Positions 2,686-6,640 of a DNA stretch of 13,347 nt are shown piece after piece. How positions within the stretch are numbered: the stretch's first letter is position 1; every line of letters starts with the position of its first letter. This stretch comes from a virus (lineage: Duplodnaviria; Heunggongvirae; Uroviricota; Caudoviricetes). The stretch is from IMG/VR virus record IMGVR_UViG_2713896781_000005; one strand, written 5' to 3'. The position numbers and the translations under genes were made by a program. The notes beneath the pieces were generated by a model. It saw only the letters and a program-made list of their open reading frames with translations, had not been told where the DNA came from and did no database searches.

Positions 2686-2707
2686 AAGCACGGTGTTCGG
2701 GGGTTTT

Positions 2708-3676
2708 ATGAGCAGCAAGCTTCATGGTCTTGTCTGGGAAGGGTGCGCCTTCACCGGCATGATCTTATCCAGGGTGGCGGTTATGGCCCGTCTTGCAGAC
2801 TACAGCAATGACGAGGGCGTGTCATGGCCTGCCATTGAAACTATCCGGCGTCAGATCGGTGCAAGAAGTGAATCCACAGTGAAATCGGCTATTGCAGAAC
2901 TGGCGAAAGAGGGCTGGCTGACGAAGGAAGAGCGTAAGGTCGGTGGGCGTAATGTAAGCAATATCTATCGGCTTAATGTGGAAAAACTCGAAGCAGCTGC
3001 GGCGGCGGCGCGTGAGTCATATAAACCGAAAAGAAAAATTAGCCCGGCAAAAAATGACCCGTTAACAGTTGACCCGTCAAATATTGACCCCTCAACGGTT
3101 GACCCGTCAAATTTTGATGGATCAACTGTTGATAAAAAACTGCCGATTAGGGGGGCGATGATTGACCCCGATCCGTCAGTATTAAAACCTGATCCGTCAG
3201 ATAAAAGATCTTCTTGTCCGGACGTTTCACTGCCGGACGAAAAACAAGCATCACCGGTCGAGCGATTTCTGGAGAAACACCCGGATGCGCATACCTGGAA
3301 TGTACCAAAGCGACAGTGGGGAACCCGGGAGGATTTGACGTGTGCACAGTGGATCTGGGGACGGGTTGTTGCGTTGTATGAACAGGCCGCCAGTGATGAT
3401 GGGGAGGTATCACGCCCCAGAGAGCCTAACTGGACGACCTGGGCGAATGATGTGCGCATGATGCGTATGCTGGATGGACGTAGTCACCGACAGATTTGTG
3501 AAATGTTTGGGCGTGTTCAACGGGATTCGTTCTGGGTAAAAAACATCATGAGTCCGGCAAAACTCCGGGAAAAATGGGATGAACTGGTTATCCGCCTGGG
3601 GCGTTCGCCCGCGCAGCGTTGCGTGAATCATATTTCTGAACCGGATACCGAAATTCCGCCGGGTTTCAGGGGGTAG
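2708..3676 (+). CDS. replication initiator, lambda O-like (N-terminal winged-helix replication domain, internal iteron-encoded repeat linker)
   Basis: N-terminal segment (LSRVAVMARLADYSNDEGVSWPAIETIRRQIGARSESTVKSAIAELAKEGWL) is typical of phage replication-initiator HTH domains; immediately precedes a DnaC-like gene. ATG 2708 (GGGGG 4 nt upstream) preferred over the GTG at 2693. Confidence 0.65.
   Translation: MSSKLHGLVWEGCAFTGMILSRVAVMARLADYSNDEGVSWPAIETIRRQIGARSESTVKSAIAELAKEGWLTKEERKVGGRNVSNIYRLNVEKLEAAAAAARESYKPKRKISPAKNDPLTVDPSNIDPSTVDPSNFDGSTVDKKLPIRGAMIDPDPSVLKPDPSDKRSSCPDVSLPDEKQASPVERFLEKHPDAHTWNVPKRQWGTREDLTCAQWIWGRVVALYEQAASDDGEVSRPREPNWTTWANDVRMMRMLDGRSHRQICEMFGRVQRDSFWVKNIMSPAKLREKWDELVIRLGRSPAQRCVNHISEPDTEIPPGFRG
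3054..3140. repeat. iteron array (about six 14-bp units, core TTGACCCGTCAA) inside the initiator gene; likely replication origin
   Basis: Tandem repeats seen directly: atgacccgttaaca / gttgacccgtcaaa / tattgacccctcaac / ggttgacccgtcaa plus two degenerate units and further TGACCCCGATCCGTCAG copies at 3161-3200; they encode the DPxxVDPSxxD peptide repeat and are followed by an A-rich stretch, as in ori-lambda within gene O. Confidence 0.55.
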
Positions 3677-3682
3677 CGCACC

Positions 3683-4423
3683 ATGAAAAACATTACGTCA
3701 GGTGGTGTTCTGGCAAGAGTCAGCAGATTTGTGCCGCAGGATGCAATCCCTCCGTACCGTACGGTGGCGGAGTGGCGGGAATGGCAGCTTGCTGAAGGGC
3801 GTAAGCGAAGCGAGGAGGTTAATCGTCTGAATCATCAGACGCGGGTTGAAAAAATCATTAACCGCTCCGGTATCCAGCCGCTTCACCGGAAGTGTACGTT
3901 CGGTAACTACCGGGTGCAGAACGATGGTCAGCGCCATGCCCTGAGTCAGGCGAAATCCATTGCGGCAGAGCTGGAAGGCGGCTGTACGAATTTTGTTTTC
4001 AGTGGCAGGCCTGGCACAGGAAAAAACCACCTGGCGGCGGCTATTGGCAACCACCTTCTGGCGAAAGGTCGCAGTGTGATTGTGATAACAGTGGCGGATG
4101 TGATGCTGGCGTTACATGGCAGCTACGACAACAAAAACTCGGGCGAAAAATTTTTGCAGGGATTGTGTGGCGTTGACCTGCTGGTACTGGATGAAATTGG
4201 CATGCAACGGGATACGCGTAATGAGCAGGTCACGCTGAATCAGATTGTTGACCGCAGAACGGCATCGTTACTCAGTGTGGGGATGCTGACAAATCTTAAC
4301 CATGCAGCGATGAATACACTTCTCGGCGAGCGGGTGATGGACCGCATGTCCATGAACGGTGGTCGCTGGGTGACGTTTAACTGGGAGAGCTGGCGTCCGA
4401 ACGTCAGCCAGCACAGGAACTGA
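3683..4423 (+). CDS. DnaC-like replicative helicase loader (IstB-type AAA+ ATPase)
   Basis: Walker A GRPGTGKNHLA and Walker B LLVLDEIG; overall DnaC-like layout; directly downstream of the initiator. Confidence 0.85.
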   Translation: MKNITSGGVLARVSRFVPQDAIPPYRTVAEWREWQLAEGRKRSEEVNRLNHQTRVEKIINRSGIQPLHRKCTFGNYRVQNDGQRHALSQAKSIAAELEGGCTNFVFSGRPGTGKNHLAAAIGNHLLAKGRSVIVITVADVMLALHGSYDNKNSGEKFLQGLCGVDLLVLDEIGMQRDTRNEQVTLNQIVDRRTASLLSVGMLTNLNHAAMNTLLGERVMDRMSMNGGRWVTFNWESWRPNVSQHRN

Positions 4424-4452: not shown

Positions 4453-5223
4453 ATGGAAACCGTATTGCATGCACTGAAAGCGATGGGTAAAGCCAATTCT
4501 GTTGAACTGGCGGCGCGGCTTGATATCAGCCGTGAAGAAGTTCTCAACGAACTGTGGGAACTCAAAAAAAATGGCGTTGTTGATAAAACGGGTCACACCT
4601 GGTTTCTGGCTGGCGAAGGTGAATCCCGGGTAACCGAAGAGCGGCCAGTAAAATCTGAAGCACAGGATATGCTGACCGGGGAGGTCGAACAAAAAGTTAC
4701 CGCAGACATGATGATTGAGTTTATCGGTCAGGATGGTGCTAAAACGTGTGAGGAACTGGCGGGTAAGTTCGGCGTCAGTACTCGCAAGGTTGCCTCCACG
4801 CTGGCGGTGGTAACCGCAACGGGGCGGCTGGCACGCGTTAATCAGAACGGTAAATTTCGTTACTGCATACCGGGCGCTGATTTACCGGCAGAGCCGGAAG
4901 CTGCATCGGTAACGGAAACCGATAGTAAAGCCTTTCCTCAGCCAACAGGTGTTGCGTTACCAGTCCGGGAAGCGGAAACACAGGAAGAAATAAAAACTGA
5001 AAGTGTGGCGGTCACAGTGCAGTCACAGCCGTCGTTCACCAGAAAGCATCCGGATGGTCTGATTTTACCATCGCTGCATGTGGCTAACCGCGAGCTGCGC
5101 CGGGCAAAAGGTCAGGTTCAGAAGTGGGAGCGTGTCTGCGCCGCGCTGCGGGAGCTGAACAAGCACCGGGATATTGTTCGACAGATTACTGATTCTTCCC
5201 GCCGTGTTGTATCGGAAAAGTGA
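4453..5223 (+). CDS. hypothetical protein with two tandem winged-helix-like modules, 256 aa
   Basis: GGAGGA before the ATG; two internally repeated segments (ANSVELAARLDISREEVLNELWELKKNGVV... and KTCEELAGKFGVSTRKVASTLAVVTATGRL...) each with an HTH-like signature. Confidence 0.6.
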   Translation: METVLHALKAMGKANSVELAARLDISREEVLNELWELKKNGVVDKTGHTWFLAGEGESRVTEERPVKSEAQDMLTGEVEQKVTADMMIEFIGQDGAKTCEELAGKFGVSTRKVASTLAVVTATGRLARVNQNGKFRYCIPGADLPAEPEAASVTETDSKAFPQPTGVALPVREAETQEEIKTESVAVTVQSQPSFTRKHPDGLILPSLHVANRELRRAKGQVQKWERVCAALRELNKHRDIVRQITDSSRRVVSEK

Positions 5224-5238: not shown

Positions 5239-5631
5239 ATGGCAAAAGTATTTACACCAGAAGATCGGGAAGAAGTGACGGCGCGCATTGTGGAATTCGT
5301 GCGCCTGAGCGGACGAGAAACTTTTCGACAACTGGCAGATAAAACGGGTGTCAGTAAGACCGCTATTCGTCGTTTATCTGGTGCGCTTGCGGCCAGTGGT
5401 GATGTCTGGCTCTCTGGTTGCGGGGTATTTCCATCAGAGCAGGCGTATCGCGTATGGCGTAAGACACCGGAGAAGGCTGCTGACCCGACACTGATTCGAA
5501 AGTTACCTGACGGAGAAATACGTCGTTACAACAGACGGCAGAACATAATTTGTCGTGAGTGCCGCCAGAGCGAAGTTATGCAGCGTGTGCTGGCGTTCTA
5601 TCGGGGAAACTTTCAGGAGGTGATGGAGTGA
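5239..5631 (+). CDS. hypothetical winged-helix-like protein, 130 aa
   Basis: ATG at 5239 with GGAGG 5 nt upstream (track ORF begins at an in-frame TTG at 5224); ETFRQLADKTGVSKTAIRRLSGALAASG segment repeats the module of the upstream gene. Confidence 0.55.
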   Translation: MAKVFTPEDREEVTARIVEFVRLSGRETFRQLADKTGVSKTAIRRLSGALAASGDVWLSGCGVFPSEQAYRVWRKTPEKAADPTLIRKLPDGEIRRYNRRQNIICRECRQSEVMQRVLAFYRGNFQEVME

Positions 5632-5924
5632 GGGTGAGAGTTTATATTGCCGGTCCAATGACGGGATATGAAAATTTCAACCGTGAGGCGTTTCACAAGG
5701 CGGAAGAGGAACTGAAACGGGAAGGGCATACCGTCTTAAACCCGGCAGTACTTCCGGACGGGCTGACACAGCCGCACTACATGGATATTTGCATGGCAAT
5801 GATTCGTTGCGTGGATGCGATTTACATGCTGAATGGCTGGCAGCGGTCAGCGGGCGCTAAGGCAGAGCTGGCACTGGCGGAGAAACTGGGACATGCGGTG
5901 ATTTATCAGGAGGTGGCTCAATGA
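5628..5924 (+). CDS. DUF4406-family protein (nucleoside 2-deoxyribosyltransferase-like fold family)
   Basis: VYIAGPMTGYENFNREAFHKAEEELKREGHTVLNP...NGWQRSAGAKAELALAEKLG matches the DUF4406 signature as I recall it. GTG 5628 overlaps the upstream stop (GTGA) and follows GGAGG at 5616-5620. Confidence 0.7.
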   Translation: MRVRVYIAGPMTGYENFNREAFHKAEEELKREGHTVLNPAVLPDGLTQPHYMDICMAMIRCVDAIYMLNGWQRSAGAKAELALAEKLGHAVIYQEVAQ

Positions 5925-6640
5925 GAGAGGTTAACTATGAGGCGCTTCGTGAAGCAGCAGAGAAAGCAACTAAAGGATGCTACATCGTAGGGCATACATC
6001 GGGCAATCAGCATGGGAATATAACAGGAGTTTTTTTTTGTCAAAAATGGAAAGGAGAACCCGGTGGCGTAATTGCAGAATGTCACGTTAACTGCCTGGTT
6101 GAAACAGATGCTCAGGCTTACGCAAACGCTGAATTTATTGCTGCCTTTAATCCAAATGTTGCGCTGGCACTACTGGATGAACGGGAAAGAAACCAGCAAT
6201 ACATCAAATCACGCGACCAGGAGAACGAGGAGATTGCGCTTACGGAAGGGAAGCTGCTAATCGAAAACGGCCGGCTTGTTGCCGATACGCTACGCCACTT
6301 AGCTGATAACGAAATCGACTCTGATTATTTTGCTATCACCTCAACGAATGAGAACGGTACTGAAATTGATCATGAGATGGCTATTACCGATTACGCACTG
6401 CAAGCTGCCGGAACTGTAGACGAATTGGTTGCGGCGTTGGAATCCGCAGAGAATCGCATTGCAGAACTGGAAGCACGGGAAATATCGCTCCCAGAACGTA
6501 GCAGCATGCTTCATCGAACAGATTTTCACGATGATTACCAAACGGTAATGGCATACAAAGTTTCTGAAGTCATCGCTGCAATCCGCGCCGCTGGCATTCG
6601 CATCAAAGGAGAGGAGCATGGAAATAAAACCAGAAGATGA
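5921..6640 (+). CDS. Ead/Ea22-like family protein
   Basis: N-terminus MREVNYEALREAAEKATKG... resembles prophage Ead/Ea22-like proteins; ATG overlaps the upstream stop (ATGA). Confidence 0.55.
   Translation: MREVNYEALREAAEKATKGCYIVGHTSGNQHGNITGVFFCQKWKGEPGGVIAECHVNCLVETDAQAYANAEFIAAFNPNVALALLDERERNQQYIKSRDQENEEIALTEGKLLIENGRLVADTLRHLADNEIDSDYFAITSTNENGTEIDHEMAITDYALQAAGTVDELVAALESAENRIAELEAREISLPERSSMLHRTDFHDDYQTVMAYKVSEVIAAIRAAGIRIKGEEHGNKTRR

Follow-up and report, generated by a model that had tools for sequence, protein, structure and literature searches.

In the nucleoside 2'-deoxyribosyltransferase (NDT) superfamily a glutamate residue forms a covalent (deoxy)ribosyl-enzyme intermediate, which has been trapped for DNPH1 in the Protein Data Bank (PDB) entry 8qhr, the 'glycosyl-enzyme intermediate' (the chain in this entry carries E55Q and that in 8qhq carries E104Q). 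The phage enzyme DmtZ, with a Tyr/Asn/Glu triad, is a hydrolase of dAMP that also passes the deoxyribose-5-phosphate moiety on to 2-aminoadenine, and its activity is lost in E103A or Y6A (PMC12884076). In the CMP N-glycosidase MilB the replacement of Phe17 by Tyr switches the substrate from CMP to dCMP, as cited in the same paper (PMC12884076); a tyrosine at strand 1 orients the glutamate and excludes the 2'-hydroxyl group. The NDT effector of retron Ec86 depletes adenine derivatives (PMC11482910). Here we describe a 98-residue DUF4406 protein encoded in a stretch of 13,347 nucleotides from the Caudoviricetes record IMGVR_UViG_2713896781_000005, the whole of which is called the window below. 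The protein is a stand-alone and shortened member of the NDT/DNPH1 superfamily and is tentatively read, with a little less than an even chance, as a 2'-deoxyribonucleoside 5'-monophosphate (dNMP) N-glycosidase or transferase that would edit the nucleotide pool early in infection.

The protein matched the Pfam family DUF4406 (PF14359) from end to end, with an E-value of 5.7e-38 and 129.7 bits (cut-off 22), residues 4–93 aligning with profile positions 2–91 of 91. It also matched PHROG 355 ('nucleoside 2-deoxyribosyltransferase') at 3e-48, and a search of NCBIfam gave no match. This confirms the membership put forward in the original prediction, which had been made from the sequence and its open reading frames (ORFs), and each piece of the signature on which it had relied is present, namely YIAGPM (residues 6–11), GHTVLNP (33–39) and W..S.GA..E (71–80). 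An ORF with identical boundaries is deposited in RefSeq as WP_001266130.1, 'DUF4406 domain-containing protein', from a prophage of Escherichia coli O145:H28, and both the gene and its family and fold assignment are already in public annotation. The protein alone matched 582 clusters (90% identity) directly and the family profile matched 17,955 clusters (50% identity). The gene was found in 1212 of 5426 complete E. coli genomes (22%, at nucleotide identity of at least 80%), Shiga-toxin-producing strains included, in up to four copies per genome and with at least 80% of its length covered in 1204 of them. Homologues are encoded in 526 phage records, comprising phages of Arthrobacter, Vibrio, Gordonia, Mycobacterium, Pseudomonas and enterobacteria. 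For 42 different alleles of the gene, taken from related prophages, the median ratio of nonsynonymous to synonymous substitution rates (dN/dS) is about 0.08, and therefore the protein is under purifying selection.

The structural model obtained with AlphaFold2 from an alignment of 30 homologues was confident (pLDDT 90.8, pTM 0.85) and contains strands β1 (residues 4–8), β2 (35–37), β3 (64–67) and β4 (90–93) together with helices α1 (19–31), α2 (48–59) and α3 (75–87). This arrangement is a flavodoxin-like α/β fold with a parallel sheet, superposable on NDT and DNPH1, as in the N-(deoxy)ribosyltransferase-like proteins. The top Foldseek matches in the PDB were the NDTs of Trypanosoma brucei, Leishmania mexicana and C. 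thermalis, DNPH1, MilB and the DUF1937 protein 1t1j, all with probability 1.0 and TM-scores of 0.70–0.76 over the query; TIR/SARM1 proteins, which use the glutamate alone on NAD+, were also among the fold relatives. The best match by both structure and sequence was the T. brucei NDT 2a0k (Foldseek E 2.5e-5, 25% identity). The same entry was found from sequence alone with a diverse profile (A2; E 3.3e-4), which was needed for this purpose, as searches of PDB sequences with the single protein or with a shallow alignment (A1) returned noise only. The NDT-like fold that the original prediction had proposed from family membership is in this way borne out by structure prediction and comparison as well as by profile search.

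The putative active site was mapped by profile-profile alignment (hhalign) of 227 DUF4406 domains with a DNPH1 family alignment, covering residues 3–93. This alignment is full-length but of low probability (E 5e-4 to 4e-3), and the mapping was trusted solely for its agreement with the T. brucei NDT alignment and with the helix-to-strand spacing. The DNPH1 profile was shallow, the homologues retrieved being almost exclusively mammalian orthologues, and its human query is identical to the PDB chains over residues 20–162; hhalign of the shallow alignment A1 against single DNPH1 and L. leichmannii NDT sequences gave nothing significant. The residue pairs were Tyr6 with Tyr24 of DNPH1, Pro39 with Glu55, Cys55 with Asp80, Asp63 with Asp88, Ser74 with Ser98, Gly76 with Gly100 and Glu80 with Glu104. 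An independent HMMER alignment to 2a0k gave the same mapping, with Pro39 on the transferase proline, Cys55 on the triad asparagine, Ser74 on the NDT aspartate and Glu80 on the nucleophile. In all, three alignments agree on the equivalents of Tyr6, Pro39, Ser74 and Glu80. Glu80 thus occupies the nucleophile position of the G-x-x-x-E motif of NDT and DNPH1, where the helix after strand 3 starts, Tyr6 that of the tyrosine at the end of strand 1, Cys55 that of the third triad residue on the helix preceding strand 3, and Ser74 that of the serine contacting the 5'-phosphate in DNPH1, a position at which uncharged residues accompany 5'-phosphorylated substrates (PMC12884076). Pro39 stands where DNPH1 has Glu55, and a proline after strand 2 is a transferase-type residue, described for Pro57 of DmtZ (PMC12884076).

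Among the 227 relatives Phe22, Ser74 and Glu80 are invariant, Gly9, Asn18, Pro39 (99% Pro), Pro43, Tyr51, Met58, Gly76 and Ala77 are conserved in at least 97%, position 6 is Tyr in 92%, and either Thr or Ser occupies position 12 in 96%. Conserved candidate catalytic residues, which the original prediction had proposed to look for, are accordingly in place. Position 55 is Cys in 80% and Asp in 9% of these close relatives, some having Gly, Ala, Ser or Thr, and distant DUF4406 members carry Asp55 ('YMxID'), including actinophage proteins of about 35% identity and two further relatives (P0165 and P0266). Since the distant members keep Asp55, the family seems to have begun with a full Tyr/Asp/Glu triad in which the enterobacterial branch swapped Asp for Cys. 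Asp53 of the YMDIC segment was considered as the catalytic aspartate and rejected: it is conserved in 70%, it co-varies with Arg60 (both present in 135 of 227), and both alignments place Cys55 at the triad position. The co-variation of Asp53 and Arg60 indicates a salt bridge i/i+7 on the helix surface.

By analogy with these enzymes, the most likely activity is the binding of a dNMP-like molecule whose N-glycosidic bond is broken or exchanged through Glu80. Through translational coupling within the rightward early operon, the protein is produced at an early stage of the lytic cycle, and like its relatives it is probably dimeric. In the proposed mechanism Ser74 and the G-P-M-T/S-G loop would hold the phosphate of a 2'-deoxyribonucleoside 5'-monophosphate-like ligand, with Tyr6 expected to exclude a 2'-hydroxyl group. 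Glu80 may then attack C1' to give a covalent deoxyribosyl-5-phosphate-enzyme intermediate with release of the base. Water would resolve this intermediate if the protein is an N-glycosidase, and another base if it is a transferase, for which Pro39 is the type of residue seen. The deoxynucleotide pool would in this way be edited while phage DNA is replicated, be it for sanitising or for salvage. Because of Cys55 and the missing last strand and helix, substrate and kinetics are expected to differ from those of NDT, DNPH1 and DmtZ.

Several findings weigh against this assignment. The match to PF05014 (Nuc_deoxyrib_tr) reached 14.4 bits with a cut-off of 28.8 (E 0.042), and weak or sub-threshold matches were seen in 22 of 59 relatives (best E 3.8e-7). 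As the match of our protein covers positions 1–93 of 117, DUF4406 is a sister of the NDT domain, truncated by about the last quarter. The chain stops after strand 4 at residue 98, about residue 123 of DNPH1, and is thus devoid of the fifth strand, the last helix, the equivalent of DNPH1 Ser128 and the lid residue contributed by the partner subunit (Trp124 in DmtZ), that is, of the C-terminal segment that completes the neighbouring active site in DNPH1, NDT and DmtZ. The third triad residue is Cys and not Asp or Asn, and position 6 is Phe in 8% of the 227 relatives. E. coli lambdoid phages have unmodified DNA, so that the benefit of dNMP hydrolysis is not obvious. A conserved nucleotide-metabolism partner next to the gene was sought in a diverse set of 80 loci from different species (43–65% identity), 61 of them with a called DUF4406 ORF and typeable neighbours, and none was found, a dUTPase lying within two genes in 1 of the 61. 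Finally, no protein of the family has been assayed: literature searches (DUF4406, PF14359, NDT with Thoeris or anti-defence, DNPH1 with phage) retrieved no functional study and no characterised member, the name occurring in three papers and as an annotation only.

Part of the same evidence could be read in favour of a catalytically weak or inert protein, a nucleotide binder or decoy acting in regulation or as a sponge, or one that co-assembles with a host protein resembling NDT or TIR, for example the NDT effector of retron Ec86, and blocks it. The canonical Asp/Asn is absent, there is no counterpart of the C-terminal segment with which relatives complete the active site of the partner subunit, the protein is a very small single domain, and in some relatives position 55 holds Gly, Ala, Ser or Thr and position 6 holds Phe. 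This alternative is considered unlikely, though it survives better than those that follow.

The original prediction had proposed that a small nucleotide- or nucleoside-processing enzyme of the early operon could act on nucleotide pools or on nucleotide-derived immune signals. The first part is reasonable and is sharpened here to a residue map, and the second found no support. An anti-defence protein would degrade or sequester a signal of Thoeris (glycocyclic ADP-ribose, gcADPR, or histidine-ADP-ribose, His-ADPR), of CBASS (cyclic oligonucleotides) or of Pycsar (cyclic CMP or UMP), or a host nucleotide poison, and the gene is indeed small, early, mobile and unaccompanied. All known signals of Thoeris, CBASS and Pycsar derive from ribonucleotides, and the known anti-signal proteins Tad1, Tad2, Acb1, Acb2 and Apyc1 have other folds. 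Against such ligands stands Tyr6, which by analogy with MilB and DmtZ (PMC12884076) predicts exclusion of the 2'-hydroxyl group; the anti-signalling idea is mildly disfavoured by this predicted preference for 2'-deoxy substrates. In addition, the sequence matched only families of the NDT clan (NDT/DNPH1) and not the TIR or SLOG domains that make or bind signals, PADLOC gave no match for the protein, no recognisable anti-defence genes cluster with the gene in the window, and the literature searches found no published link of DUF4406 to defence or anti-defence. An action on nucleotide pools is thus better supported than one on immune signals, the latter being rather improbable.

About as improbable is a glycohydrolase activity, not on ordinary dNMPs, but on an activated N-ribosyl compound whose cleavage requires no acid catalyst, examples being nicotinamide mononucleotide, NAD+ and nucleotides with a cationic or modified base. 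Such an activity would account for a general-acid position occupied by Cys or small residues in the enterobacterial subfamily, and fold relatives that act on NAD+ with the glutamate alone are known in TIR/SARM1 and in the NDT effector of retron Ec86 (PMC11482910). On the other hand, Tyr6 argues for 2'-deoxy substrates, depletion of NAD+ would damage the phage's own replication, and the Asp55 of distant members makes the family as a whole look like one of ordinary NDT chemistry. With a similarly small chance, the minimal Cys-containing NDT site would be deployed early by temperate phages against a specific deoxynucleotide-type conflict molecule, which may be a toxic or chain-terminating nucleotide made by the host or a damaged or deaminated dNMP; if this were true, the protein would represent a new class of nucleotide-directed counter-defence enzyme and not a housekeeping pool sanitiser. 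A chance ORF or decaying pseudogene is refuted by the full-length Pfam match, the low dN/dS, the presence in 1212 E. coli genomes and the coupled start with its Shine-Dalgarno sequence.

The translation signals of the gene are collected in the table together with the other features of the window. The gene is translationally coupled on both sides, as is visible from the overlaps. The coupling to the upstream winged-helix gene and the location in an early operon, both part of the original prediction, hold: the former is seen in the GTGA overlap and the Shine-Dalgarno sequence, and as to the latter, the gene follows the replication genes and precedes the antiterminator Q in the rightward early operon of a lambdoid prophage. 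A longer reading of 121 aa from the GTG at 5559 was rejected, as homologues start 2–4 residues ahead of the YIAGPM motif.

Features of the window, with the DUF4406 gene and its signals and codons first (positions count from the first letter of the window)
Feature	Position	Strand	Remarks
DUF4406 coding sequence	5628-5924	+	98 aa; GTG start 5628-5630, TGA stop 5922-5924
Shine-Dalgarno sequence AGGAGG	5615-5620	+	7 nt before the DUF4406 GTG, within the 3'-terminal part of DUF977; sequence reading
GTGA overlap, DUF4406 start and DUF977 stop	5628-5631	+	sequence reading
ATGA overlap, ead/Ea22-like start and DUF4406 stop	5921-5924	+	sequence reading
Second AGGAGG	5908-5913	+	ahead of the ead/Ea22-like start; sequence reading
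Tyr6 codon	5643-5645	+	aligned with the catalytic Tyr (DNPH1 Tyr24; DmtZ Tyr6)
Pro39 codon	5742-5744	+	LNPA motif; aligned with the Pro conserved in NDT transferases; DNPH1 Glu55 position
Cys55 codon	5790-5792	+	third-triad position (DNPH1 Asp80; Asn in T. brucei NDT and DmtZ)
Ser74 codon	5847-5849	+	aligned with DNPH1 Ser98 (5'-phosphate contact); Asp in nucleoside-specific NDTs
Glu80 codon	5865-5867	+	aligned with the covalent nucleophile (DNPH1 Glu104; NDT Glu98; DmtZ Glu103)
DUF977 ('LygF'-like, winged-helix) gene	5239-5631	+	upstream; Pfam PF06163 E 1.7e-40; RefSeq boundaries
ead/Ea22-like gene	5921-6640	+	intact 239-codon ORF; Ead_Ea22 Pfam E 2.2e-30
O-like helix-turn-helix gene	2693-3676		replication
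DnaC/IstB-like ATPase gene	3683-4423		replication
DUF1627 gene	4453-5223	+	
hok/sok-type toxin-antitoxin locus	8446-8621	+	ORFs near 8559-8771; Rfam sok 118.5 bits; RefSeq hokD
16-base N run	8635-8650		breaks the hok reading frame in the window
50-base N run	9618-9667		within DUF968-region ORFs
DNA methyltransferase gene	11764-12822		about 6 kb downstream of the DUF4406 gene
tRNA-like element	12869-12928	+	after the DNA methyltransferase gene; Rfam tRNA positions 7-64 of 71, 37.3 bits; RefSeq tRNA-Met
STnc100 small RNA	13048-13256	+	prophage small RNA at the right end of the window; 175.6 bits
AgvB (anti-GcvB small RNA)	13257-13318	-	prophage small RNA at the right end of the window; 92.5 bits

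DUF977 lies directly upstream in 60 of 80 close relatives (viral contigs), the downstream gene being variable, and within two genes in 3 of the 61 typeable diverse loci; because this coupling is lineage-specific, DUF977 is a neighbour and not a functional partner. Throughout the 80 close and 80 diverse loci no conserved partner was found, no neighbour family occurring in more than 14 of the 80 diverse loci. In the 61 typeable loci the genes up to two places away are those usual in such mosaic regions, encoding replication proteins, Q, lysis functions, integrases and DNA methyltransferases. The homologue of actinophages stands likewise among replication and nucleotide genes, and nothing coherent was seen in the contexts from Chloroflexota and Planctomycetota. 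The gene is an autonomous module. DNA methyltransferases of several classes (Dam, C5, N6_N4, D12, MT-A70) lie up to two genes from DUF4406 in about 13 of the 61 loci (set L087–L166), and they are also found near the gene in actinophages Nadeem and Kepler.

Fusion partners were sought in 61 longer relatives and no enzymes were found, the sporadic extra domains being DUF4752, DUF551, a region like the C-terminal domain of the RNA polymerase alpha subunit and a ClpX zinc finger. Five metagenomic proteins of 260–333 aa (P0147, P0165, P0173, P0204 and P0245) have long N-terminal extensions with repeated Trp-rich modules of the 'W.P...GW.W' type and no Pfam match, which may represent an undescribed phage domain or repeat. 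Two proteins of uncultured phages in BFVD, A0A6J5LQ71 (216 aa) and A0A6J5S4N9 (462 aa), aligned with the model of DUF4406 at identities of 41% and 33%, and to judge from their UniProt names they may be fusions of a dATP/dGTP diphosphohydrolase with a DUF4406-like domain; if true, they would parallel the fusion of DmtZ with DutZ.

The names that DUF4406 homologues bear in phage records are inconsistent and include deoxyribosyltransferase, dCMP deaminase, MazG-like pyrophosphatase and hydrolase. In actinophages Kepler, Lizalica and Nadeem (L084, 2477-2845; L085, 2504-2869; L086, 2501-2887) the deposited names are 'deoxycytidylate deaminase', 'MazG-like pyrophosphatase' and 'hydrolase', and Pfam gave DUF4406 with a weak NDT match only. 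Fusions to a dCMP deaminase, MazG or a 'hydrolase' were considered for these phages and rejected, the proteins being single-domain DUF4406 of 121–128 aa. Such labels look like misannotations, which other records could inherit.

With a lambdoid prophage of the Rac/Stx-like type from E. coli O145:H28 the window shares 99.9% identity, and it has the usual layout of an immunity and early-right region, with a leftward repressor-like gene, a rightward cro-like gene and a gene of the YdaT family, followed by the replication genes and then by DUF1627, DUF977, DUF4406, ead/Ea22, several small ORFs, hok/sok, DUF968, RusA, the antiterminator Q and a DNA methyltransferase. Over the span of the window the RefSeq counterpart measures 13,470 bases, about 120 more than the 13,347 seen here, and the corresponding ead/Ea22 gene of strain RM12761 is flagged as frameshifted in RefSeq. 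The DUF1627 protein showed weak PADLOC winged-helix matches of the CARF, Csa3 and CasR helix-turn-helix type (best E 1.7e-5) and several weak Pfam helix-turn-helix matches, a likeness that is probably a generic winged helix-turn-helix similarity. For the tRNA-like element the acceptor stem looks unpaired, and ARAGORN found no tRNA in the window.

The protein is an ordinary member of a catalogued and uncharacterised family, and its identification is a correct annotation, not a discovery; the change of Asp to Cys in its subfamily and the truncated fold make it a worthwhile, not a surprising, biochemical target. One biochemical assay would settle the annotation of thousands of DUF4406 genes and would show whether editing of the deoxynucleotide pool is found in ordinary temperate phages too and not just in phages whose DNA is modified, and the residue map of Tyr6, Pro39, Cys55, Ser74 and Glu80 is a guide to the choice of mutants.

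Set against known systems, the protein is a typical member of Pfam DUF4406 and PHROG 355, with the length and motifs of hundreds of prophage homologues. DUF1937 (PA1492-like; PDB 1T1J) and DUF7768 are separate Pfam families that are also uncharacterised and hence uninformative on function. DmtZ of the PurZ0 phages (Gordonia phage Ghobes, Arthrobacter phage Wayne; PMC12884076) is the only assayed phage NDT-like enzyme that the literature searches found. It shares with our protein the small size, a third triad residue other than Asp, the conserved proline and the uncharged residues at the 5'-phosphate site, and it acts on a dNMP (dAMP), but it has about 145 aa, Asn77 and the lid Trp124, and was not detected with Pfam models. 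DmtZ is linked or fused to the dATP/dGTP hydrolase DutZ and serves the synthesis of 2-aminoadenine DNA, whereas the window holds no purZ (PurA-like) or dut-like (dUTPase) gene. The NDTs (PF05014; T. brucei 2A0K, L. leichmannii 1F8X and C. thermalis 8PQT), taken as one system, have in common with the DUF4406 protein the YIAGP start, the proline after strand 2, the nucleophile motif G-[AT]-x-x-E and the 'AD' cap before strand 3. They differ in the Asp at the position of Ser74 and the Asp or Asn at that of Cys55, and with about 150–160 aa they include a fifth strand and a C-terminal tail entering the neighbouring active site. DNPH1/Rcl, the 2'-deoxynucleoside 5'-phosphate N-hydrolase (PDB 4P5E, 8QHR and 4FYH), has the same fold at about 20% identity; Asp80 and Glu55 are replaced here by Cys55 and Pro39, and Ser128 and the C-terminal helix have no counterpart, whereas the equivalents of its Tyr, Ser, Gly and Glu residues are kept. 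By this analogy, the presence at position 74 of Ser as in DNPH1, and not of Asp, suggests a 5'-phosphorylated substrate.

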